Positions 21,119 to 50,353 of a stretch of DNA of 64,000 nt are shown piece after piece. Below the pieces are notes generated by a model. The model was not told where the DNA came from. It ran no database searches and saw only the letters and a list, made by a program, of their open reading frames with translations. Every line of letters begins with the position of its first letter. Positions within the stretch are counted from its first letter, which is position 1. The stretch is taken from positions 48,962-112,961 of the forward strand of contig CBEUCH010000007.1 of the NCBI GenBank assembly GCA_965541585.1, written 5' to 3'. A program made the position numbers and the translations under genes. This DNA comes from an uncultured bacterium (lineage in GTDB: Bacteria; Zixibacteria; MSB-5A5; UBA10806).

Positions 21119-22012
21119 TCAATTGTATTTTCCGATTTTAATTACTGGGTGTGGCGTCTCAGGGATTATAAGACTATCGCTAAAGAACATGATTTCTTTG
21201 CCTGAGTAGCGCGCCTGTGCACTATAACTTAAGCGATAACAGAGTTCGCGCCTGTCCTTGTATAAAGAAGTTACTTCCGGAACGGCATCATACGAAACGA
21301 TCCATGGCTGGCAAATCTGTTGTTGAATCGTTAGCGCCAAATTTCCATGATCACTATGCGTGAAATGGTTCTGATATAATTCTTTACCTTTAGCATAATA
21401 TGGTGGGTCCATATAAATTAGAGTTTTCAGCGGTAGCTTGGGTAAAACCTTCCTTATGAAATCCCTACCGTCCATACAATATACGGAAATGCGGCTTTTG
21501 AATCGTGCAATGCGTTGAATTCTTTTTATTAAGTCCCTTTTATTAAATCTTGCATCAAGTTTCCACTTCCCAGCCTGGCCTTTGCCGCCAATCACACCTC
21601 CAGATATTATGCCTGATCTATTTGTACGATTAAGAAAAAATGTACTGAACCCAAGTTCAAGGGCAGTGTGCCCATTTGGATTGTTTTGAATAGCTTTTTG
21701 TCTATGCCACTGTGCAATAGTGACTTTAGTATCTTGGATAAGGCGGCATAGATGGTCAGTATTCTCTAATAAGGAAACCCAGAAGCTATATATGGATCTA
21801 TCAAGGTCGTTGATATGAATTTGCCGAACATATTCTCCAAAAAGCATTGACCATGCTATACTAGCTCCGCCTGCAAAGGCCTCAACATAATGACCATCGT
21901 GCAAATCGTTTTCAGAAATGACAGTTTTTATAAACTTTACTAAGGCGCCCTTTCCTCCGGGGTAGCGCAAAGGACTCGTAAATGGATGGTTTTGAGCTTT
22001 TGGTATGTCCAT
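21119..22012 (-). CDS. Dam-family (D12 class) N6-adenine DNA methyltransferase
   Basis: LRYPGGK N-terminal motif, AdoMet motif EAFAGGAS and catalytic DPPY (YMDPPYY); AT-rich relative to flanks. Confidence 0.85.
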   Translation of the reverse strand: MDIPKAQNHPFTSPLRYPGGKGALVKFIKTVISENDLHDGHYVEAFAGGASIAWSMLFGEYVRQIHINDLDRSIYSFWVSLLENTDHLCRLIQDTKVTIAQWHRQKAIQNNPNGHTALELGFSTFFLNRTNRSGIISGGVIGGKGQAGKWKLDARFNKRDLIKRIQRIARFKSRISVYCMDGRDFIRKVLPKLPLKTLIYMDPPYYAKGKELYQNHFTHSDHGNLALTIQQQICQPWIVSYDAVPEVTSLYKDRRELCYRLSYSAQARYSGKEIMFFSDSLIIPETPHPVIKIGKYN

Positions 22013-22016
22013 CCGA

Positions 22017-23381
22017 TTAGGCCCATACCTTCTGGAAAAAGGGCTGGATGTTATCCCATATCCTTATTAGGTCGCTAGCGATCGGATTATAGTGCTGATT
22101 ATGGACATATTCCTGCCAATTGCTAATCGAAAAAATAGTATCTCTAGAGCTAACTAGAGTGCGAATGCCGTGGAGTTCTCTTTTGGAAGAAGCATCTTTA
22201 TCTACTAAATAATCAACAATACGTGCTACCTTCTTTTTAAGTGGCAAATCTCTTTGGGTTTTCTTGCCGTCCTTGTCCGTTCGTACCTCTCTTAGGCTTA
22301 TCCTTTTTATTCTTGCGAATTCATTTACACTCATTTCCATAAATACGCGAAGAAGCACGGCAGATGAGTTTTCGAAGTCGTTTACCTTGAGCCGCTTAAG
22401 CTCGTCAAAGATTCTAGTCATTCTTGGCTGGGCAATATTCAGTCTCAATGATTTTGGAATAAGCGTTTTACGGCTTGCACCATTTCCCTTTTTCTTTTTT
22501 GTCCGCTCCTTTGCAGGCGTCACTTGCCCGGTTAGGTCTGTTGGGGCGATCTTCTTTCCTGGGGTCGGTAAATCTCTCGCCGCTACGGCAGTTGCATAAC
22601 CTACACGTTGATCCTTAGTGTCGAGTTGAGTGACTTTAATATGCTTGTTTGCTATATCGTTAACTACAATTGCCATTCGACCTACTGCATCGGTTTTTTC
22701 ATCCGGATTGAGGAAAATAAGTTGCTTATTAATTATGTCCATTCCAATTATATGCCTCGCATCCGGAGTATTAATTAATCTTTGCAGGTTTGTAATAGGA
22801 ATTCTGGCCAGTTTGTCGCGAGTTTCATCATCTAAAAAATCACTATCTTTCACAATTTCAAGTAGCTGAGACTCCGGGGATTCTCCCCGGAATCGCGATG
22901 CGGCTATACCGTTCCAACTAATTATTCCAACACCGGCATTCTCTCCTGTATGGCGAAGCTCAATCCACATTCTCGCCTTTTTACGGCTGGGTGCTACTGT
23001 ACAATGAAGATTTACCGGGAGACTTGAACCATACTCTTGGTTTAGCGATTTTAGACGTCTTGCAATACTCGTCGGCAGCTTTAGGGAATCTACCAGTTTT
23101 GGCTCGGAGCATAATTTGATGGCAGCGACCCGCCTATTACCCTCTAATACAGTATAATATCCCTTATCACTCGAATTTATAACGATCGGCATTTCTGATG
23201 GATTAGTGTCGTTTTGAGCTATGTGCTCCGCTAATTTAACGAGCTTTTGTCCTTGTTCGATGGCTATTGTCCTAAGTGCTTCGCGTTGGTTATGTTGGGT
23301 TTCGAATCTAGGATTTTTGATGTCAAGTAACAGGTTTACCAAGTCGATATCTTCATACTCATACTTCTCTTTAGACATCAA
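22017..23381 (-). CDS. ParB/Srx N-terminal (ParB-like nuclease) domain protein with unassigned C-terminal half
   Basis: VNLLLDIKNPRF...MPIVINSSDKGYYTVLEGNRRVAAIKL matches the ParB/sulfiredoxin-fold box (L.D..NPR ... G.Y.V.EGNRR.AA.KL); Lys-rich linker KERTKKKKGNGASRK; 4-nt gap to the methyltransferase on the same strand. Confidence 0.6.
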   Translation of the reverse strand: MMSKEKYEYEDIDLVNLLLDIKNPRFETQHNQREALRTIAIEQGQKLVKLAEHIAQNDTNPSEMPIVINSSDKGYYTVLEGNRRVAAIKLCSEPKLVDSLKLPTSIARRLKSLNQEYGSSLPVNLHCTVAPSRKKARMWIELRHTGENAGVGIISWNGIAASRFRGESPESQLLEIVKDSDFLDDETRDKLARIPITNLQRLINTPDARHIIGMDIINKQLIFLNPDEKTDAVGRMAIVVNDIANKHIKVTQLDTKDQRVGYATAVAARDLPTPGKKIAPTDLTGQVTPAKERTKKKKGNGASRKTLIPKSLRLNIAQPRMTRIFDELKRLKVNDFENSSAVLLRVFMEMSVNEFARIKRISLREVRTDKDGKKTQRDLPLKKKVARIVDYLVDKDASSKRELHGIRTLVSSRDTIFSISNWQEYVHNQHYNPIASDLIRIWDNIQPFFQKVWA

Positions 23382-23555: not shown

Positions 23556-24467
23556 TTATACCTTGTCCGCTCCCTTTCCCCCCTTCACCCCAATCGTCAA
23601 ATCCTCATCCTGCCTTATATATACCGTTTGATGCGGGAAGGGGATCTCTATCCCCAGCCTGTCGAATTCGTTTTTCACGCGGCGGCGGAATTCTCTGGCC
23701 ACCTCCCATTGCTTGAGCGGCGCCGTCTTGATGATCATTTTTATTATAACCGCTGAGTCATCCAGTGAATTGACGCCCAGGATGGTCGGCTTCTCCAGGA
23801 TGACATTTTTGTATTTCTCATCCTCATGCATTTTCCGGCCGAGATCCTCCAGTACCTTCATCACCTTATCAACATCCTCTTTGTATGCGACACCGATATC
23901 GAGATTGGCGCGCGACCAGCCGTAGGTCATATTGCTGAGTATCTCGATCACACCGTTGGGAATAGTATGAACTATGCCGTCCAGATCCCGGAGAACTACG
24001 GTTCGCAACGTAATCTTCTCCACCAGTCCGGCGGTGCTGCCGATCCTGACCACGTCCCCGACCCTGATCTGGTTTTCCATTATCAGAAGAAATCCGCTTA
24101 CCAGGTCCTTGACCAGCGCCTGGGAGCCGAAACCGATGGCCAATCCCAGGATACCGGCGCCGGCCAGTATCGGCCCTATATCGATCCCGAGTTCCTTTAT
24201 GATAGTCATGCCACCTATGACTATTATAAGCATCCTGGCAGCGAAGGTGATAATCTGTACCAGCGTCGCAACCCGGCGCTCTCTTTCGTTTTCGGATGTG
24301 GGGTCGTCGTCTGCTGTCACGCGTATTATTCGCTCACCTATCTTCTTGGATAACTTTGTGGCGATCCACATTCCGATTAATATGAGTACTATCTTTAAAC
24401 CGTGAGTCAGCAGCCATCCCACGACAACATCGATTATTCTCGATGCGTTCTCAGGCAGGATATCCAT
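23556..24467 (-). CDS. mscS: small-conductance mechanosensitive channel (MscS family)
   Basis: Three N-terminal TM helices, then a conserved MscS beta-domain (GDVVRIGSTAGLVEKITLRTVVLRDLDG). Confidence 0.85.
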   Translation of the reverse strand: MDILPENASRIIDVVVGWLLTHGLKIVLILIGMWIATKLSKKIGERIIRVTADDDPTSENERERRVATLVQIITFAARMLIIVIGGMTIIKELGIDIGPILAGAGILGLAIGFGSQALVKDLVSGFLLIMENQIRVGDVVRIGSTAGLVEKITLRTVVLRDLDGIVHTIPNGVIEILSNMTYGWSRANLDIGVAYKEDVDKVMKVLEDLGRKMHEDEKYKNVILEKPTILGVNSLDDSAVIIKMIIKTAPLKQWEVAREFRRRVKNEFDRLGIEIPFPHQTVYIRQDEDLTIGVKGGKGADKV

Positions 24468-35820: not shown

Positions 35821-37355
35821 GCGGCGCCGGAAAAATACTGATCGTCGACTATGGCTCGCAATATACCCAGCTTATCGCACGAAGAATAAGGGAATCAAAG
35901 GTATATTCGGAGATAGTCAGCTGTAATCACAGTCTCGACCATTATGACTTTTCCGACGTTGCCGGCATCATCCTTTCAGGCGGGCCGTCATCGGTGTTCG
36001 ATAAAGGTGCGCCTAAGCTCGATAAGCGGCTATTGTATGTGGGTCGGCCCGTGCTGGGGATTTGCTACGGGCTTATGCTGATGGCTATGAATATAGGCGG
36101 TGGAATCGGCATTTCCAGGCGACGGGAATACGGACGCGCCATGATGATCCGGACCGGCAGATCCGATCTTTTGAAGAAACTGCCCTCCAGATGCCAGGTC
36201 TGGATGAGCCATGGTGATCATGTCGAAAAACTTCCGCTGGGATTTAAGGGGATTGGATCTACCGAGGCCCTGGGATTTGCCGCCATAGCCAATCAGAAGC
36301 GCAGGCTGTACGGGGTGCAGTTTCACCCGGAGGTGGCGCATTCCGAGTACGGCAAACAGATTCTGCATAATTTCCTTTTCGATATCTGCAAATGCAAGCC
36401 GACCTGGTCGCCTGCATCGTTTATCAATAGTTCTGTAAACGAGATCAAGAAAACGGTTGGCCCGGGAAAAGTGATCTGCGCCCTGTCCGGCGGCGTAGAT
36501 TCGGCGGTGGTGGCGATGCTGTTGAATAAGGCTGTCGGCAAGCGGGCGGTATCGGTTTTTATCGATAACGGGCTGTTGCGCCTGAACGAAGCCGAACAGG
36601 TGAAGGCCGCCTTCAAGAAATTCGGGCTGAATCTCAAGACGGTGGACGCCTCGGCGATGTTTCTCAGGCGGCTGAAAGGTGTAGCCGATCCGGAGATGAA
36701 ACGCAAAAAAATCGGCCGGGCCTTTATCGAGGTTTTCACGAAGGAAGCGGCGAGGATCGGCAAGGTCGATTTCCTGGCGCAGGGGACATTGTATCCCGAT
36801 CTGATCGAATCGGTCTCCTTCAAAGGGCCGTCGGCGACAATAAAGACGCATCATAACGTCGGCGGGCTGCCGAGGCGGATGCGACTGAGGCTGATCGAAC
36901 CGTTAAGAGAGCTTTTCAAAGACGAGGTCCGGGCAGTTGGCCGAAGGCTCGGCCTGCCGAAAGATTTCATAGGTCGTCACCCGTTCCCCGGGCCGGGGCT
37001 GGCGGTGCGGATCCTTGGGGCCGTAACGCCGGAACGATTGACGATACTGCGCGAAGCCGACTATATATTCATCTCTGAGCTCCGCAAATGGAAGCTGTAT
37101 GATGATACCTGGCAGGCGCTGGCCGTGCTTTTGCCGGTCCGGTCGGTGGGTGTCATGGGGGATGAGCGCACCTACGAGAACGTCGTCGCGCTGCGCGCCG
37201 TGACCTCCCTGGATGCCATGACCGCCGACTGGGCTCACCTGCCCGACGATTTCCTCTCCCATGTCTCCAACCGCATCATAAGAGAGGTCAAGGGGATAAA
37301 CCGAGTGGTCTATGACGTCTCCTCCAAACCCCCCGCGACGATTGAGTGGGAGTGA
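35817..37355 (+). CDS. guaA: GMP synthase (glutamine-hydrolysing)
   Basis: TTG start after an AGGAGG RBS; GATase domain (KILIVDYGSQYTQLIARRIRE), ATP-PPase SGGVDS, C-terminal IEWE. Confidence 0.95.
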   Translation: MSGAGKILIVDYGSQYTQLIARRIRESKVYSEIVSCNHSLDHYDFSDVAGIILSGGPSSVFDKGAPKLDKRLLYVGRPVLGICYGLMLMAMNIGGGIGISRRREYGRAMMIRTGRSDLLKKLPSRCQVWMSHGDHVEKLPLGFKGIGSTEALGFAAIANQKRRLYGVQFHPEVAHSEYGKQILHNFLFDICKCKPTWSPASFINSSVNEIKKTVGPGKVICALSGGVDSAVVAMLLNKAVGKRAVSVFIDNGLLRLNEAEQVKAAFKKFGLNLKTVDASAMFLRRLKGVADPEMKRKKIGRAFIEVFTKEAARIGKVDFLAQGTLYPDLIESVSFKGPSATIKTHHNVGGLPRRMRLRLIEPLRELFKDEVRAVGRRLGLPKDFIGRHPFPGPGLAVRILGAVTPERLTILREADYIFISELRKWKLYDDTWQALAVLLPVRSVGVMGDERTYENVVALRAVTSLDAMTADWAHLPDDFLSHVSNRIIREVKGINRVVYDVSSKPPATIEWE

Positions 37356-37368
37356 AGGAAGAGAAGAA

Positions 37369-38430
37369 ATGAATAATCTGAAAATAGTCTTGATTAAAGA
37401 TGAAACGATTCTTGATGTATCAGCAAGTAAATATCAAACAGAGAACTACAGCGGAGAGGGGATTGTTTTAGACATTAGATCTCGCGATGGATATAGAGAA
37501 ACTGTTGGATGTGTTATTTCATCAATATTGGCAGCAATCGAAGGAAAAAACCTGTCTGGCAAATCGAGCAGGTTAACAGAATATGAGAAAGTTGTCTTGT
37601 CGGTTCGAGCTTATTGTAATCGAAATTTCCACCCAGATGACAAAAATGAGATCCTAATTATCACGGATAACTACAATAATCTTATAAATAGAAAAGGCGA
37701 TATTTCTAAGGTCAAAGACGAAATAAGAAGAAAATTGTTTGTATTCTTCAACAGTAGGGCAAGAGAATATATCAATGGTCTGAGCCTTTATTGTTCTATG
37801 TATTATGATATTTCCATTATAAGGGACTCATTGTCATTATTAAAGGAAATAGGGGATATTAAACCTATGAATCGGGCAGGCACTTGGGATGCTTACAGTA
37901 TTGATCACTGGCATGAGCAATATAGGCTTATGCCTGAAATCTATAAAGAGATGGAGACAGAAATTCATCAAAAACAGTCTATAATATTGAATAATAATAA
38001 TTCATCGGCTACCAAGATCGAGAAATTTGATTTTTTCATATGCCATGCTAGCGAAGATAAAGATCTATATGTAAGGGAATTAGCCAATAAGCTTAAAGAT
38101 GAGCCATTTGATATTTGGTATGATGAGTTTTCGCTTTCTTGGGGCGATAGTCTAAGGCAAAGTATAGAAAAAGGATTAAAAGAATCAAAGCATGGAATAG
38201 TCGTATTAAGTGATAATTTTTTCGCAAAAGATTGGCCTCAGAGGGAATTAGACGGTCTTTTTGAGCTGGAAAGTCAGAATAAAAAAATACTACCGATTTG
38301 GCTTAGGATAGACAGAGATGGTATCGCGAAGTATTCACCAATACTTGCTGGCCGTCTGGCATTAAAGGCCAAAGATGGGTTTGATAAGATAATTAATGAA
38401 GCCAAAAAGCTACTCGGAAGAAATCAATAG
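37369..38430 (+). CDS. TIR-domain protein with an uncharacterised ~215-aa N-terminal domain
   Basis: C-terminal FDFFICHASEDKDLYVRELANKL...IWYDEFSLSWGDSLRQSIEKGLKESKHGIVVLSDNFFAKDWPQRELDGLFEL matches TIR_2 motifs including the W-x3-E catalytic-Glu box. About 35% GC. Start chosen at ATG 37369 (RBS GGAAGAG) rather than 37312, which lies inside guaA. Confidence 0.8.
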   Translation: MNNLKIVLIKDETILDVSASKYQTENYSGEGIVLDIRSRDGYRETVGCVISSILAAIEGKNLSGKSSRLTEYEKVVLSVRAYCNRNFHPDDKNEILIITDNYNNLINRKGDISKVKDEIRRKLFVFFNSRAREYINGLSLYCSMYYDISIIRDSLSLLKEIGDIKPMNRAGTWDAYSIDHWHEQYRLMPEIYKEMETEIHQKQSIILNNNNSSATKIEKFDFFICHASEDKDLYVRELANKLKDEPFDIWYDEFSLSWGDSLRQSIEKGLKESKHGIVVLSDNFFAKDWPQRELDGLFELESQNKKILPIWLRIDRDGIAKYSPILAGRLALKAKDGFDKIINEAKKLLGRNQ

Positions 38431-38436
38431 CCGTAG

Positions 38437-38511
38437 GTCAGGAGCCCAACGGGCTCCTGACGAATGAATGAAAATGCTGTATGAAAACGTCAGGAGCTTT
38501 CAGCTTCTGAC
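38437..38511. repeat. pair of related GTCAGGAG hairpins immediately after the TIR gene stop
   Basis: GTCAGGAGCCC-AAC-GGGCTCCTGAC (perfect 11-bp stem, 38437-38461) and GTCAGGAGCT-TTC-AGCTTCTGAC (38489-38511). Confidence 0.6.
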
Positions 38512-38526
38512 CTGCCACCAAAGTAT

Positions 38527-38766
38527 ATGAAAGAAAAAATTGGTCAAGCTTTATTCGCCATTGTGGCAATCATCCAGACTATTCTGCACTATCTCGGGTT
38601 ATTGGGTATTATATTGGGCATTATAGCTTTGATATTTAAAAACACGGGACGGGGAATCGAACTTTTAATTGGCGGAGCTTCTTTTATAGTAATGAAATAT
38701 CTTATTGGAATTATTTTTCATTTAGTTATTCGTATATTTAAATTATCTAATGAAAGAGAGCAGTAG
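38527..38766 (+). CDS. 79-aa two-helix membrane protein, hypothetical
   Basis: Two hydrophobic spans (ALFAIVAIIQTILHYLGLLGIILGIIALIF and LLIGGASFIVMKYLIGIIFHLVI); AT-rich like the TIR gene; RBS-like GAAAGAAAAAATTGG region upstream. Confidence 0.4.
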   Translation: MKEKIGQALFAIVAIIQTILHYLGLLGIILGIIALIFKNTGRGIELLIGGASFIVMKYLIGIIFHLVIRIFKLSNEREQ

Positions 38767-38781
38767 GTCGGATTAACTGCG

Positions 38782-38855
38782 CTGTCAGGAACCTCATACG
38801 AGCCGTATGGCCTTTCCTGACAGGCAGCGTAATCGTCGGGAAGGGATTCCCGACG
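38782..38855. repeat. nested hairpin CTGTCAGGAA...TTCCTGACAG with inner CATACG/CGTATG stem, plus CGTCGGGAA-GGGA-TTCCCGACG hairpin
   Basis: Perfect 10-bp outer stem (38782-38791 / 38814-38823) and perfect 9-bp stem (38834-38855). Confidence 0.6.
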
Positions 38856-38955
38856 CCGCTGGGAAAACTTGCTATAACTCTGAATAAAGCCTCAGCGGAC
38901 AAAATATCTTGACATCGCAAGCGTCACTTATTCATTAGACCACGAGGAGTCGATA

Positions 38956-45895: not shown

Positions 45896-45943
45896 TTTCG
45901 GCAGGCAATGCTGATGATGCGAGACAATTCGAAAAATATTCGT

Positions 45944-46218
45944 AGGGGCGAGGTCACCTCGCCCCTAAAAGATGAATGGGCTGGGAGACGATGCCGCGGG
46001 GGTTTGATTAATCAAACCCCTACAATAAGACAGGAATCAAATAATACAGAATGAGTAGGTCGGGTTCCCTACGGGTCGTATGACCGAACGAAGTGAGAAA
46101 CCCGACAAAAGATGGATGCCGGACCGGGTCCGGCATGACAAGGTAAGGCGCTGTCATTCCCGCGAAAGCGGGAATCCAGAAGGCAAGCCTTTATGGATGC
46201 CGGATCAAATACGGACGG
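45944..46218. repeat. cluster of five short hairpin/palindromic repeat units (REP-like composite element, copy A)
   Basis: AGGGGCGAGGT/ACCTCGCCCCT (45944-45966), GGGGTTTGATT/AATCAAACCCC palindrome (45999-46020), GTAGGTCGGGTT...AAACCCGAC (46056-46106), TGCCGGAC-CGG-GTCCGGCA (46118-46136), ATTCCCGC-GAAA-GCGGGAAT (46156-46175). Confidence 0.7.
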
Positions 46219-46237
46219 GAGATTAGAGTGGTGAACT

Positions 46238-46939
46238 ATGGATAATTGCCGATTATGTAGGAAAGAACGCGAACTATGTGATTCACATATAATTCCCGAA
46301 TTTATGTATTCATCGCTTTATGATGAAAATCATAAGTTTAATCAACTTACAAAGGATCGAATTATTCCTAGGCCTTTAGGGATATATGAAAAAATGTTAT
46401 GTGAAGTCTGTGAAGGAAAACTCAACTTCTATGAGACTTATGTAAAAGAAGTATTGTATGGTGGAACCGAATTAGTTATTCGAGAATATAAAAGCCATAC
46501 GTCTTTTCTAAATATTGATTATAATAGGCTTAAGTTATTCCATATGAGTATATTGTGGAGGGCCGGAGTGACCGGGCGAGAGGAATTTTCGGATGTTGAG
46601 TTAGGGCAAAAGCATGAGGAAAAACTCAGAGCGATGATCAATAATGATAATCCGGGTAAGCCATATGAATATCCTTGTATAATCATGTATAATATAAACA
46701 GCACTCCTGAGATAAATCAAGGTTTAGTCACAAATCTCCATAAATCGCTCAGGTACGAGGGTCATATGGCATATAAAGTCTTTATGGCTGGTTGTATTTG
46801 GGGTTTCCTTGTGTCCTCACATACAAATAGAATTGATAACACAAGACACCTGTGGTTAGACAATAGGGGTTTAATAATACACAAAATCTCGGTAAGCCAA
46901 GAAAAGTTTCTACAAAATTTAATAAGTAAATTGGAATAA
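46238..46939 (+). CDS. hypothetical Cys-rich protein with HNH-like N-terminal motif (CxxC...DSHIIP...CxxC)
   Basis: MDNCRLCRKERELCDSHIIPEF...CEVCEGK; about 35% GC; no other recognisable domain. Confidence 0.45.
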   Translation: MDNCRLCRKERELCDSHIIPEFMYSSLYDENHKFNQLTKDRIIPRPLGIYEKMLCEVCEGKLNFYETYVKEVLYGGTELVIREYKSHTSFLNIDYNRLKLFHMSILWRAGVTGREEFSDVELGQKHEEKLRAMINNDNPGKPYEYPCIIMYNINSTPEINQGLVTNLHKSLRYEGHMAYKVFMAGCIWGFLVSSHTNRIDNTRHLWLDNRGLIIHKISVSQEKFLQNLISKLE

Positions 46940-46951
46940 GGGAGAATACAC

Positions 46952-48265
46952 GTGGCCAAAAAAAAATCGATAGACCCTCTAATGGATAAGCTGGTATCGC
47001 TCTGCAAGCGGCGGGGATTCGTATTTCAATCATCGGAGATATACGGCGGGCTTGGTTCCTGCTGGGACTATGGCCCCCTCGGCGTGGAGTTGAAGAATAA
47101 TGTCAAGCGTTCCTGGTGGGAGGCCATGACTCATCGCCGCGATGATATAGAGGGGATCGATGCCGCCATACTCATGCACCCCAAGGTCTGGGAGGCCTCG
47201 GGACATATCGAAGGTTTTACCGATCCGATGGTGGACTGCAAGCAGTGCAAACATCGTTTCCGCGCCGACGAGATCACAAAAGATCAATGCCCTGATTGCG
47301 GCGGGGAGTTAACCGAGCCGCGCATGTTCAACCTGATGTTTAAAACCTTCATGGGGCCGGTGGAGGAGGATGCTGCGGTGGTCTTTATGCGGCCGGAAAC
47401 CGCACAGGGTATCTATGTCAATTTCCATAACGTCCTGCAGCCGTCGCGGCAGAAGCTGCCGTTCGGTATTGCGCAGATCGGCAAGGCCTTCAGAAACGAG
47501 ATCACGCCCGGTAACTTCATCTTCCGCACCCGCGAGTTCGAGCAGATGGAGATGCAGTTTTTCGTGCACCCGTCGGAGGATGCCAAATGGTTCGACTACT
47601 GGAAAGATCAGCGCTGGGATTGGTATCTCGAACTGGGTATCCGCAAGGAGAAGCTTCGCTGGCACGAGCATGCAAAAGACGAGCTCGCTCATTATGCCAA
47701 AACCGCCTTCGATATCGAATATGAATTCTCATTCGGCTGGAAGGAGATCGAGGGTGTTCATAATCGCACCGATTTCGACCTCTCCCGCCATGCGGAGTCC
47801 TCGGGCAAGGATCTGCGCTACTTCGATCAAGCGCGCAACGAAAAATATCTCCCTTATATTATAGAGACCTCCGCCGGCGCCGACCGCACCACGCTTGTCG
47901 TCCTGGTTGACGCCTACCATGAAGAAGAGGTCAAGGGCGAAAAGAGGGTGGTTCTGAGGCTTTCGCCGAAGATCGCCCCTATAAATGCCGCCGTTTTTCC
48001 CCTCGTGAACAAAGAGGGGATGCCTGAGGTGGCCGAGAAAATTTATCACGACCTGAAAGAACATTTCAAGGTTTTCTACGATGGCGGCGGTGCGGTGGGG
48101 CGACGTTACCGCCGCATGGACGAGGCCGGCACACCGTTCTGCATCACCGTTGACGGCCAAACCCTCGAGGACGACACCGTCACCGTCCGCGAACGCGACA
48201 CCATGGAGCAGATCCGGCATAAGATTGGGGAACTGGTGGAGGTGATTGGGGAGAAGGTGAATTGA
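46952..48265 (+). CDS. glyQS: glycine--tRNA ligase (dimeric alpha2 type)
   Basis: [34 protein letters not shown] class II motif 1 region; 437 aa, consistent with alpha2 GlyRS. Confidence 0.93.
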
Positions 48266-48325
48266 CCGTGCTCGCAGTTAATGTAGGCGTGTATCGCATT
48301 TGCTTCCGGGTTCAAGTATGAAAAT

Positions 48326-49306
48326 TTGGGCAAATCCATGAAATGGCACCTGACGGAAGATGAAATAGCAAAAACCCAGAAAGGCGATGAAAATGAATTT
48401 CGCCATTTCTTCGACGAAAGGGGATATTGCCCGTTGAAATTGGATGATGGATCGATAGGAAAAGCGCCTGATTACTCGTTAACCAACAATGGCCAAAGGG
48501 TAGTTGCTGAAATTAAGAGTAGATTCGGAGATCAAGAATACGAAAAAATATACTCAGAAATCGTAAGACGGATTAATGAACTCCCTTTTGGGTATGAATA
48601 TTACTTCACGCATCTTTATGATAAAATGCCTTCCAATGACGAATTTGATACACTTATTGCCCAGGTAAGCGAACGATTCAGAGCATTGACCAATAAAATT
48701 GAGCTTCCTTGGGATTTGTCGCAAGGATTATGGGAATATGAAGAGACGCTAACTGATTTAGGGCGTGCAGAACCTATGTCCGAAATTGAAAAGACCTTTA
48801 TTACACTATCTGGCAAAACCGCAAACGGGAAAATGCATTGTGACACATTGAGTAGAAGTCATCAAGGTTACCCCGGCTTGGGAGATAAGAGATATTTTGA
48901 AAAGCGATTTCGTGAGTCAAAGAAACAACTTAAAGAGTATATAGAATACAATGAGATTGTGGGAATAATATTTTTTAATCATTCAGACGTGACTTGGAGA
49001 TTATTTGACGTAATGGCATTATTTGGAGATTTAGACATTCAATTCAACCATGGCTCTCAAGTCGATACTTGGCTTATCAAATCTGGGAAAAACAAGATCA
49101 TTGGAATAGAAAAGAAAACATGGCTAAGCTATTTCGGATTTTGCGGATGTAATGAAGATGGCTCTTTTCTTACAATTTATCGAAATGGATTCGCTAAACA
49201 TGAGGTTCCCAAGGTTTATTTTCCAGAGCCTGAATGTAAAACATATACAATAGGTCCGTTTGATGAAAATGGGCGTTTCATTACTGATATTCCGTTTTTG
49301 CAATAG
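48326..49306 (+). CDS. hypothetical protein, possible PD-(D/E)xK nuclease-fold N-terminus
   Basis: E...APDYSL-x9-VVAEIKS resembles an E/PD/ExK arrangement; about 38% GC; otherwise unassigned. Confidence 0.4.
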   Translation: MGKSMKWHLTEDEIAKTQKGDENEFRHFFDERGYCPLKLDDGSIGKAPDYSLTNNGQRVVAEIKSRFGDQEYEKIYSEIVRRINELPFGYEYYFTHLYDKMPSNDEFDTLIAQVSERFRALTNKIELPWDLSQGLWEYEETLTDLGRAEPMSEIEKTFITLSGKTANGKMHCDTLSRSHQGYPGLGDKRYFEKRFRESKKQLKEYIEYNEIVGIIFFNHSDVTWRLFDVMALFGDLDIQFNHGSQVDTWLIKSGKNKIIGIEKKTWLSYFGFCGCNEDGSFLTIYRNGFAKHEVPKVYFPEPECKTYTIGPFDENGRFITDIPFLQ

Positions 49307-49533
49307 CGAGTAGCTGAGGTTCCGAACGTTGTGAGCGGACGAAGATCTTTATAAACCGGACACAATTCTGGATACCGGATTCCTACGGCCATACGGCCCG
49401 TAGGGATCCGTATGGACAAGTCCGGCATGACAGGAAAAAGGCCAAGGAAGTGGATGCCGGATCAAGTCCGGCATGACAGGGGTAGAGGGCTGTCATTCCT
49501 GCGGAAGCAGGAATCCACGCGCGAGCCAATAGG
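49307..49533. repeat. REP-like composite repeat cluster (copy B)
   Basis: Degenerate GAGTAG...GAACG...GACGAAG unit, GGATTCCTACGGCCATACGGCCCGTAGGGATCC hairpin, TGCCGGATCAAGTCCGGCATGACAGG and ATTCCTGC-GGAA-GCAGGAAT (49495-49514). Confidence 0.7.
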
Positions 49534-49818
49534 ATGAAAACGTATTATGTCTATATTATGGCAAGTCAAAAACATGGAACCCTATATATAGGTGTTACCA
49601 GCGATCTTAAGAAAAGAGTCTATGAACACAAAAACGACCTGATCGATGGTTTTACCAAGAAATATCAGGTGCATAGCTTGGTATATTGCGAGGCGGCCGA
49701 CGATGTCAACGCGGCGATAATTCGAGAGAAGCAACTCAAGAGATGGAAACGGCAATGGAAGATCGAGTTGATCGAGAAAGAAAATCCGGACTGGCGAGAT
49801 CTCTATGAAGACCTGTGA
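49534..49818 (+). CDS. GIY-YIG nuclease family protein (small, UPF0213-like)
   Basis: YYVYIMASQKHGTLYIGVTSDLKKRVYEHK is the GIY-(x10)-YIG motif with a conserved Arg, and a downstream Glu is present. Confidence 0.85.
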   Translation: MKTYYVYIMASQKHGTLYIGVTSDLKKRVYEHKNDLIDGFTKKYQVHSLVYCEAADDVNAAIIREKQLKRWKRQWKIELIEKENPDWRDLYEDL

Positions 49819-49845
49819 TTATTGCGCCCAATGGCTAGCTTATGG

Positions 49846-49931
49846 ATACCGCATCGAGTGCGGTATGACAAGGAGATGGCCAGGCTTCATGGATGCCGGA
49901 TTCCTACGGCCATACGGCCCGTAGGGATCTG
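49846..49931. repeat. REP-like composite repeat cluster (copy C)
   Basis: ATACCGCA-TCGAG-TGCGGTAT followed by GACAAGG (49846-49873), and GGATGCCGGATTCCTACGGCCATACGGCCCGTAGGGATC (49891-49929), identical to the core of copy B. Confidence 0.7.
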
Positions 49932-49971
49932 TAGGACGGGGATCTAGAATGACGAGACAAATATAAGCAAA

Positions 49972-49996
49972 AGGGGCTGAACATTGTTCAGCCCCT
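49972..49996 (-). terminator. hairpin terminator candidate for the convergent minus-strand gene 50024-50353
   Basis: AGGGGCTGAAC-ATTG-TTCAGCCCCT (11-bp stem) with AAAA on the + strand, giving UUUU on the minus transcript. Confidence 0.4.
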
Positions 49997-50023
49997 GCAG
50001 ATACCGTTACTATTTTTTGCGGA

Positions 50024-50353
50024 TCAGTTTATTGACCGCCGGTGTATCACTCTTAATGCTCTTAGTACCATATGCTCGGCTCGCTGGGCGTGATTGAACG
50101 CCGCCCGGCAATGATCGCCGCGATAGGCCCTGTTGGCGGCATGGATTTCATCGATAGCTGAATGGAGCAGGCTTATGGCACGCTCATTCCCTGACCTCAG
50201 GATTCTGGGAGTTGCCCGCTCGATCAATCCCTCGACCCTGTCAATGTAGGCTCCGACCCTCGGGCAATCCTCCGTTGGGATGGCGATTGTCTCAAGCGGC
50301 ATTAGAACAAAAAGCAGGGCGAATACTATGATTGACGAAATTACGATTCTCAT
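50024..50353 (-). CDS. small secreted protein, hypothetical
   Basis: 109 aa with an N-terminal signal-like hydrophobic segment; no motif recognised. Confidence 0.4.
   Translation of the reverse strand: MRIVISSIIVFALLFVLMPLETIAIPTEDCPRVGAYIDRVEGLIERATPRILRSGNERAISLLHSAIDEIHAANRAYRGDHCRAAFNHAQRAEHMVLRALRVIHRRSIN

Follow-up and report, generated by a model that had tools for sequence, protein, structure and literature searches.

The stretch analysed here, a 64-kb piece of contig CBEUCH010000007.1 from an uncultured bacterium of the Zixibacteria (below, the window), carries three clusters of short hairpin repeats, A, B and C, around glyQS, and among them a gene for a 94-aa GIY-YIG protein. The gene order is enolase, ftsB, recO, cluster A, an AT-rich open reading frame (ORF) of 233 aa, glyQS, an AT-rich ORF of 326 aa, cluster B, the GIY-YIG gene and cluster C. 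These features belong to an already described system, that of the nuclease Ssn and the CGTC-tagged repetitive extragenic palindromes (REPs), here accompanied by GTAG-tagged REPs. A first-pass annotation of the same DNA had taken the hairpins for one composite family, possibly recognised by an enzyme encoded elsewhere; we find instead two REP superfamilies with a nested 36-nt insert, and the candidate nuclease is the GIY-YIG gene itself (49534–49818), an SsnA homologue.

SsnA of Neisseria meningitidis is a 94-aa single-domain GIY-YIG protein that binds the NTS hairpin CGTCATTCCCGCGMAVGCGGGAATCYRG, which contains dRS3 (Chenal et al. 2025, Nat Commun 16:2388, PMC11893778). It binds only single-stranded DNA (ssDNA) and cuts it a few nucleotides upstream of the hairpin, being inactive on double-stranded DNA, RNA and the reverse strand; the three nucleotides that precede the palindrome are important for cutting, and the C that follows it for binding, the substitutions Y6A, Y17A and E64A abolish cutting, and the enzyme is inactive once the palindrome sequence is altered with pairing preserved (PMC11893778). 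The mechanism has been demonstrated for enzymes of Neisseria, N. elongata, N. wadsworthii and Wolbachia, and in Neisseria Ssn restricts incoming transforming ssDNA that bears the motif (PMC11893778). Across Bacteria, 71% of Ssn homologues have at least one flanking Ssn-related motif (SRM) and 42% have one on both sides (PMC11893778). Hairpins with a CGTC or TGTC tag, an AT-first stem of 8–9 bp, a 4–5-nt loop and a CCA tail have been classed as CGTC-tagged REPs, in families of 20 to thousands of copies per genome, with Neisseria dRS3 as CGTC-1 (Di Nocera et al. 2013, PMC3733652). In that survey they lacked a dedicated enzyme, unlike the GTAG-tagged REPs, which are linked to REP-associated tyrosine transposases (RAYT) (PMC3733652, Table 1).

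The SRMs and the gene that they bracket are listed here; D numbers are repeat-finder families, L numbers are compared loci, and scores in bits are those of a covariance model.

46113–46140, minus strand: SRM TGTCATGCCGGACCCGGTCCGGCATCCA, in a tag-to-tag dimer with 46152–46179; this dimer is paralogous to that at 49451–49518.
46152–46179, plus strand: canonical SRM TGTCATTCCCGCGAAAGCGGGAATCCAG, 47.4 bits.
46194–46205, minus strand: half SRM TGGATGCCGGAT and then unrelated sequence, immediately ahead of the AT-rich 233-aa ORF (family D16).
49369–49432, minus strand: SRM with its loop broken by a 36-nt insert; the orthologous SRM of L220 (755–784) is intact.
49451–49478, minus strand: SRM TGTCATGCCGGACTTGATCCGGCATCCA, in a tag-to-tag dimer with 49491–49518.
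49491–49518, plus strand: SRM (CGTC-1 REP) TGTCATTCCTGCGGAAGCAGGAATCCAC, the hairpin next upstream of the gene, with 15 nt between its end and the ATG; 40.6 bits, DNA fold −7.8 kcal/mol.
49534–49818, plus strand: ssnA homologue, a predicted 94-aa single-domain GIY-YIG nuclease, bracketed by outward-facing SRMs.
49843–49870, minus strand: SRM (CGTC-2 REP) TGTCATACCGCACTCGATGCGGTATCCA, proximal downstream and outward-facing, starting 24 nt past the stop codon.
49890–49956, minus strand: broken SRM mosaic made of a half SRM (TGGATGCCGGAT, plus strand), a second 36-nt insert (49902–49937) and the remnant of another SRM (GGGGATCTAGAATGACGAG).

All modules quoted by the first-pass annotation are present at their coordinates, and their stem changes are compensatory. 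Thus ATTCCCGC-GAAA-GCGGGAAT at 46156–46175 and ATTCCTGC-GGAA-GCAGGAAT at 49495–49514 differ by a paired C>T and G>A. The repeat finder groups hairpins of 31–33 nt at 46111–46143, 49451–49481 and 49841–49873 (family D2), a 37-nt module at 46142 and 49481 (family D8) and a 44-nt module at 49369–49412 and 49890–49933 (family D5, 95% identity); the two-hairpin unit 46113–46178, D2 plus D8, is repeated entire at 49451–49517. When both strands are read together, the first two modules of the first-pass annotation, the GAAA/GGAA hairpin and the 31–33-nt hairpin, become a single frame in opposite orientations: TGTC, an 8-nt arm starting AT, a loop of 4–5 nt, the complementary arm and CCA (TGTC-AT-N6-loop(4–5)-N6′-AT-CCA). 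Perfect stems are found in five window copies, which all fall in 46113–49870; three more copies are broken (46194–46205, 49369–49432 and 49890–49956). Shuffled versions of the window gave 0–3 frame matches each, with up to one stem mismatch tolerated.

All five intact copies have the four features by which CGTC REPs are defined, namely the unpaired TGTC tag, the AT-first 8-bp stem, the 4–5-nt loop and the CCA tail. The copy at 46152–46179 agrees with the NTS consensus at 27 of 28 positions, T replacing the first C, and is the sole match in the window to the published degenerate SRM pattern (0.26 matches expected by chance); the other four differ from the consensus in the stem and depart from the pattern in stem letters only, and the same stem variants flank many ssn homologues. 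Because the published pattern matched only one window copy, a frame-based finder and a covariance model were adopted for the hairpin search. The covariance model, built from related copies and run with filters off, returned the five intact copies and one further match at 23777, which was dismissed: it is unpaired, lies within an ORF for an MscS-like channel and had entered the training set through chance flanks.

As ssDNA the five intact SRMs fold with −7.8 to −10.3 kcal/mol (z = −3.0 to −5.1). For covariation we used copies from 82 loci, picked by their flanks alone (GTCAT-N16-ATCC) so as to avoid circularity. Six perfect inner pairs are found in 148 of these 168 copies, with 28 different arms, and shuffling of partners leaves about 8% perfect stems. 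Across 146 distinct copies 96.8% of cells are paired, and double-sided changes occur at all six variable pairs, in 109 cells against 17.8 in shuffles (none of 500 shuffles was as high); sliding the partner by 1–3 columns lowers pairing to 19–50%. It is therefore well supported, from copies in other genomes, that the SRM stem is selected as a structure, as the first-pass annotation had proposed, and although in the window the modules are confined to the clusters around glyQS, the paired substitutions are reproduced in hundreds of further copies from these 82 loci.

That annotation had left open whether the structure is formed in RNA or in ssDNA, and covariation as such fits both. Hairpins acting as terminators, mRNA stabilisers or riboregulators of the flanking genes would lie where these do, in intergenic sequence after stop codons and, in one case, in the ssnA leader, and RNA roles for REPs have been proposed by Di Nocera et al. 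We nevertheless hold a structured RNA to be extremely unlikely, and of the two options ssDNA is preferred. The hairpins occur in both orientations though all called genes around them are on the plus strand, and wobble (G-U) pairs make up about 10 of 1168 cells, less than 1%, which fits a constraint on DNA pairing rather than RNA. There was no match in the window to any Rfam family at gathering thresholds, and SsnA of N. meningitidis binds the ssDNA form and not RNA (PMC11893778). Terminators in particular were rejected, as there is no T-tract 3′ of the hairpins on the transcribed strand.

The protein encoded between clusters B and C matches only GIY-YIG in Pfam (PF01541, residues 4–77, E 1.1e-14), with a weak overlapping match to T5orf172. 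The N. gonorrhoeae orthologue of SsnA was our reference for Ssn homology, standing in for the meningococcal protein; it was taken from PLSDB entry NZ_CP119140.1, which like NZ_CP119142.1 (L099) is labelled a plasmid and is actually a 2.17-Mb N. gonorrhoeae chromosome. The orthologue has 94 aa, with Y6, Y17 and E64, and is itself surrounded by NTS copies. The window protein finds its locus by tblastn with E 3e-27, and by BLASTP the two proteins are 56% identical over 89 aa, gapless, with E 2e-38; the Ssn family (cd10448) has been delimited by E < 1e-10 to Neisseria SsnA (PMC11893778), and the window protein falls well inside that limit. Its Y7, Y18 and E65 are invariant in 25 homologues and align to Y6, Y17 and E64 of the gonococcal protein, the catalytic residues of the meningococcal one. 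The predicted structure is a lone beta-alpha GIY-YIG domain (pLDDT 85.9), whose nearest solved folds are UPF0213 protein BH0048 (1ZG2), Slx1 and the N-terminal domain of UvrC; searches of the PDB by sequence and by fold returned no Ssn structure, the sequence search being without any match. NCBIfam and PADLOC gave nothing above threshold; for the Ssn protein NCBIfam had sub-threshold matches only. By sequence, then, the 94-aa protein is an SsnA homologue and the predicted cognate enzyme of the CGTC-tagged hairpins.

Homologues of this GIY-YIG protein number thousands. A scan at one genome per species gave at least 597 ssn loci, of which we kept the best 80, spanning about 30 phylum-level groups at 56–76% amino-acid identity. 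Association with the hairpins was counted for 84 ssn homologues, likewise from about 30 phylum-level groups, with a strict hairpin finder, and 120 nt on each side were inspected for layout. Almost everywhere TGTCAT-stem-loop-stem-ATCCAG closely precedes the gene on the coding strand, and its mirror, CTGGAT...ATGACA, closely follows it. A same-strand SRM lies within 80 nt upstream of 51 of the 84 genes and an opposite-strand SRM within 80 nt downstream of 47; 35 (about 42%) have SRMs on both sides and in 63 there is an SRM on at least one side. Within 300 nt of ssn there are 2.5 SRMs per kb, against 0.16 per kb farther away. Where both hairpins are present, the stems differ between the two sides in 22 of 36 genes, at 1–4 of 8 positions. 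Viral contigs contain more than 120 stretches with the SRM pattern and encode ssn in only 2 of 80, which says little either way. At one locus (L085, 91–2807, ENA ERZ18628513; layout shared by L083–L089) ssn stands tail-to-tail with a gene for a ComEC-like competence channel (DUF4131/Competence/Lactamase_B); this is a single anecdote from one uncultured population, of interest because Ssn modulates transformation in Neisseria.

We think it highly probable that the "composite family" is made of CGTC-tagged REPs of Ssn with their cognate gene among them, together with GTAG-tagged REPs and a nested 36-nt insert, the Ssn part working by analogy with Neisseria. In ssDNA, the strand reading 5′-TGTCAT...ATCCA-3′ would fold into an 8-bp hairpin; Ssn would bind the stem, the unpaired GTC tag and the C after the stem and would cut a few nucleotides 5′ of the tag, with no action on double-stranded DNA, RNA or the opposite strand. 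Cleavage or hairpin extrusion might then promote the rearrangements described below, or limit incoming DNA. We infer from the same analogy that this Ssn acts on the window copies.

The likeness to the SsnA/NTS pair of Neisseria (PMC11893778) covers the 94-aa single-domain GIY-YIG protein with the same Tyr-11-Tyr-47-Glu spacing, the GTC tag, the 8-bp stem of ATTCCCGC type, the C after the stem, the bracketing of the gene by motifs and the clustering of motifs around other genes too. Unlike it, the window comes from another phylum, and within its 64 kb the few copies lie no more than 4 kb from the gene; one gene is accompanied by four stems, of which the published pattern leaves out three; upstream of the gene there is a conserved tag-to-tag dimer; and the nested 36-nt insert is found in two copies. 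With families 1 and 2 of the CGTC REPs (PMC3733652), which include Neisseria dRS3 and Rickettsia RPE-4/6, the hairpins share the TGTC tag, the AT-first 8-bp stem, the CCA tail, a loop of 4 (family 1) or 5 (family 2) and the presence of several families in one genome; they differ in having tags inside the dimers (TT type) and in clustering, both rare in that survey, which left out this phylum.

Some points weigh against assigning the hairpins to Ssn in this way. The single window ssn gene is found among hairpins of four different stems; four of the five window copies fall outside the published SRM pattern, which does not cover the stems TCCTGC, GCCGGA and ACCGCA; and the Neisseria role may not transfer to this organism. 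Many stems per gene, with N. meningitidis SsnA needing its own palindrome sequence, mean that some copies may not be substrates. Since the published pattern misses these three stems, published SRM counts are probably underestimates. The assignment allows an unannotated hairpin family and a "hypothetical GIY-YIG" gene of an uncultured lineage to be named as an Ssn/SRM pair with GTAG REPs, which on its own is an annotation result. To a system described only in 2025 it adds that one ssn gene commonly goes with several stem sequences, which bears on how Ssn reads its sites, and that the published search pattern misses most copies here.

The inverted-repeat-like architecture of SRM-ssnA-SRM, with outer ends GTCAT...ATGAC, also suggests an autonomous element resembling an insertion sequence (IS), in which the GIY-YIG protein would be the "transposase", solo SRMs derivatives like miniature inverted-repeat transposable elements, and the clusters insertion products. 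Ssn cuts just outside the tag, and the idea has been raised before (PMC11893778). Amino-acid identities to the window protein reach 60–76% across phyla, and a Zixibacteria copy, L018 (69%), is less similar to it than Latescibacterota (76%) or Saccharibacteria (74%) copies, a pattern that suggests horizontal transfer; tandem or double ssn copies are found in L002, L010 and L056, and the number of SRM units varies between close relatives. We consider such an element quite unlikely all the same. The layout glyQS ... ssnA ... galT is common to four relatives (L001, L002, L220 and L222), with Ssn identities to the window of 81%, 77%, 96% and 81%, respectively, and the divergence of Ssn from L001 (81%) is similar to that of GlyQS (88% identical); ssnA is a stable resident, in the same position in four relatives. 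Recent transposition of ssnA was rejected, as the identical proteins P0043 (24 contigs) and P0051 (19 contigs) each occur always in one gene context. An empty site for the ssnA gene was not found among the compared loci, and the end hairpins are on opposite strands, leaving one cleavable end per single strand. The TnpA nucleases of IS200/IS605 are likewise small, read DNA hairpins only when single-stranded and cut beside them; they differ in HUH-Y1 rather than GIY-YIG chemistry and in having both IS ends on the same strand, and transposition is demonstrated for IS200/IS605, not for Ssn.

Besides the CGTC-tagged hairpins that we assign to Ssn, the window holds a GTAG-tagged family of GTAGGGGC hairpins and GTAGGTC hairpins. 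A 5′ GTAG tag followed by a stem-loop with a stem of 5–13 bp is found at 45942, 45998 (minus strand), 46055, 38433 and 38763; the features are as follows.

38433–38856, plus strand: fourth hairpin cluster, of GTAG type only, after the AT-rich TIR-domain gene (37312–38430).
45942–45967, plus strand: GTAG-tagged REP GTAGGGGCGAGGTCACCTCGCCCCTA, −13.2 kcal/mol, z = −6.8, with frame-mates that have other stems in L001, L002, L014 and L020.
45998–46023, minus strand: GTAG-tagged REP GTAGGGGTTTGATTAATCAAACCCCC.
46055–46106, plus strand: GTAG-tagged REP GTAGGTCGGGTT...AACCCGAC, whose loop holds a 17-nt variant of the mini-insert core (see below) at 46068–46084.
49309–49345, plus strand: decayed REP of GTAGGTCGGGTT type with which cluster B begins; the GTAG REP at the corresponding place in L220 is intact.

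A nested structure at 38763–38856 folds with −29.7 kcal/mol (z = −6.4), and the GTAG hairpins of 38433–38856 bracket a small AT-rich region. In L001, downstream of recO, and in other places the same GTAG frames come with other stems in which the changes are compensated, and L001 has the REP of 46055–46106 with a different loop insert. The suggestion that the elements are REP-like thus holds for both tags (PMC3733652).

Mobilisation by RAYT is a published hypothesis for GTAG REPs, which flank some of the RAYT genes (PMC3733652, PMC2817692). Were all hairpins RAYT-dependent REPs or REPINs, the GIY-YIG gene would be an unrelated neighbour; the GTAG-tagged hairpins in clusters A and B and at 38.4 kb agree with this, and the REP dimers and mosaic clusters resemble bacterial interspersed mosaic elements (BIMEs). 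For the hairpins as a whole we find it very unlikely: CGTC REPs have no associated transposase (PMC3733652), yet here they are about 15 times denser near ssn genes. GTAG hairpins show no such enrichment (0.03 per kb near ssn, 0.05 per kb elsewhere), so they form a family separate from the CGTC REPs and were rejected as part of the Ssn system. A Pfam scan of 38 window ORFs (ORFs above 400 aa lie mostly outside it) gave no RAYT or other Y1 HUH transposase (PF01797) and no IS200-like gene, in agreement with the first-pass annotation. For the GTAG modules alone, RAYT dependence is reasonable, and we would lean neither towards it nor away from it. They share with described GTAG REPs, RAYT and BIMEs (PMC2817692, PMC3733652, PMC3479197) the 5′ GTAG tag, the GC-rich hairpin, compensated stem variation, mosaic clusters with other repeats and loops that accept self-complementary inserts; they differ in being interleaved with CGTC REPs and in that no RAYT was found among the scanned ORFs. 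In an Ignavibacteria metagenome-assembled genome (L020, 8080–8610) a unit made of one CGTC REP and one GTAG REP is present eight times in a 69-bp tandem array; the two superfamilies can therefore amplify together.

The clusters adjoin genes that vary between relatives. The two variable genes of the window, and the contents of the two slots, recO–glyQS and glyQS–ssnA, in the window and its relatives, are given line by line.

46238–46939, plus strand: variable-slot gene of 233 aa, AT-rich (33–38% GC), matching PHROG 19960 (E 2.4e-28) and unrelated to the slot gene of L001.
48326–49306, plus strand: variable-slot gene of 326 aa, AT-rich, without family match; other genes occupy this slot in L001, L220 and L222.
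Window: recO–glyQS, the 233-aa PHROG 19960-like gene; glyQS–ssnA, the 326-aa orphan.
L001: recO–glyQS, a 358-aa SIR2_2-like gene (365–1441, weak match); glyQS–ssnA, a 360-aa gene.
L222: recO–glyQS not covered; glyQS–ssnA, a 415-aa pP_pnuc_2-like gene (425–1672, weak match) and a 121-aa SH3 gene.
L220: recO–glyQS not covered; a 195-aa gene on the opposite strand upstream of ssnA.

The slot genes of the window (46238–46939), L001 and L222 are all phage- or defence-flavoured, and none is characterised. The TIR-domain gene at 37312–38430 (32–40% GC) is a third AT-rich islet, with GTAG REPs directly 3′ of it; the related contig L248 matches the window up to 37353 and then has different content with SRM and GTAG repeats. 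Over 49451–49901 L220 is 94% identical to the window in nucleotides, the window being without one 83-nt SRM dimer unit. Homology between the two breaks inside SRM loops, at 49380|49381 and at 49901|49902, and past the latter L220 carries two genes absent from the window. Downstream of ssnA (49965–50353) the window has only a 109-aa minus-strand gene with a terminator hairpin (49972–49996), and this stretch holds genes of 107 and 145 aa in L220 and L001 and of 109 and 145 aa in L222.

Since slot content differs between close relatives and homology breaks in SRM loops, the clusters act as recombination or indel breakpoints. The hairpin clusters are breakpoints of recent change, and the hairpins may be its cause. 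The idea of insertion hot spots, put forward in the first-pass annotation for the AT-rich genes and the GIY-YIG gene alike, stands for the former, with unrelated genes in the slots of three relatives, and fails for the latter, which keeps one position in four relatives at 77–96% identity. Outside Neisseria, then, SRM/REP clusters lie where slots of strain-variable, AT-rich and partly defence-like content begin and end, with breakpoints in hairpin loops. The Neisseria intergenic mosaic elements (NIMEs) are mosaic intergenic clusters of hairpin repeats. The dRS3-flanked variable genes of Neisseria resemble the present case in that hairpin repeats lie in mosaic intergenic regions beside strain-variable genes (PMC11893778, PMC3733652); they encode surface antigens, in contrast to the AT-rich orphans and defence-like genes found beside the hairpins here.

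The same observations, namely unrelated AT-rich slot genes in each relative (PHROG 19960-like, SIR2_2-like, pP_pnuc_2-like, TIR) and the two homology breaks with L220 in SRM loops, would be expected if the clusters were chiefly target or crossover sites for other recombinases that create variable defence-like slots, with Ssn secondary. In Neisseria dRS3 is a known phage recombinase target (PMC11893778). We regard this as unlikely: among the 38 scanned window ORFs there is no integrase or recombinase gene in or beside the slots, and homologous recombination between repeats could equally yield the breakpoints. Target sites for recombinases would in any case be compatible with the identity of the repeats as Ssn motifs.

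Both homology breaks with L220 lie at a further small element, the third module of the first-pass annotation, a 36-nt palindromic mini-insert.

49381–49416, plus strand: mini-insert TCCTACGGCCATACGGCCCGTAGGGATCCGTATGGA, with a second copy at 49902–49937.

At both window sites the palindrome sits one nucleotide into an SRM loop, with the same left junction, and the alignment with L220 shows a clean 36-column gap, an orthologous empty site in an SRM that is otherwise intact. Five other, unrelated metagenome contigs have copies of 94–100% identity, which lie inside or next to SRMs whose stems differ. At least seven SRMs, of three stem types, have its 17-nt core, GGCCATACGGCCCGTAG, all at the same point of the 3′ arm, and a variant of the core with a compensated mini-stem lies in the loop of a GTAG REP (46068–46084). 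Core or palindrome is nested in SRM and GTAG hairpins at window positions 49381–49416, 49902–49937, 46068–46084 and 38795–38810 and in L002, L243, L248, L249, L268, L272, L278, L322 and L325. A literature search for the mini-insert sequence gave no paper with it.

We put forward, as a doubtful proposal only, that the 17-nt core and the 36-nt palindrome are an ultra-small mobile insertion that targets SRM hairpins and is perhaps made by, or exploits, Ssn cleavage of the extruded hairpin. Alternatively, the mini-insert may mark an SRM subfamily with a bulge hairpin, or may have spread by gene conversion between copies. If mobile, it would be a tractable case of hairpin-targeted insertion, and Ssn-SRM loci would be places of active DNA rearrangement, controlling also the turnover of the AT-rich, defence-like gene slots beside them.

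An 18-mer of the mini-insert was seen in other settings as well. A composite repeat from termite gut, built of small hairpins in a chain (GTAGAGCTATACCTCTAC ... TGTACAGAGCCTCAGTGCCTGTACA; L225–L336, for example L304 and L256), has it 33 times, and it occurs about 52 further times, mostly in GC-rich unrelated contexts, 13 of them with gcc/ggc flanks; the latter may be chance matches or coding sequence.

Elsewhere in the window a D12-class N6-adenine DNA methyltransferase gene (21119–22012, minus strand) is followed by a 454-aa ORF (22017–23381), and the two may be a restriction-modification pair.

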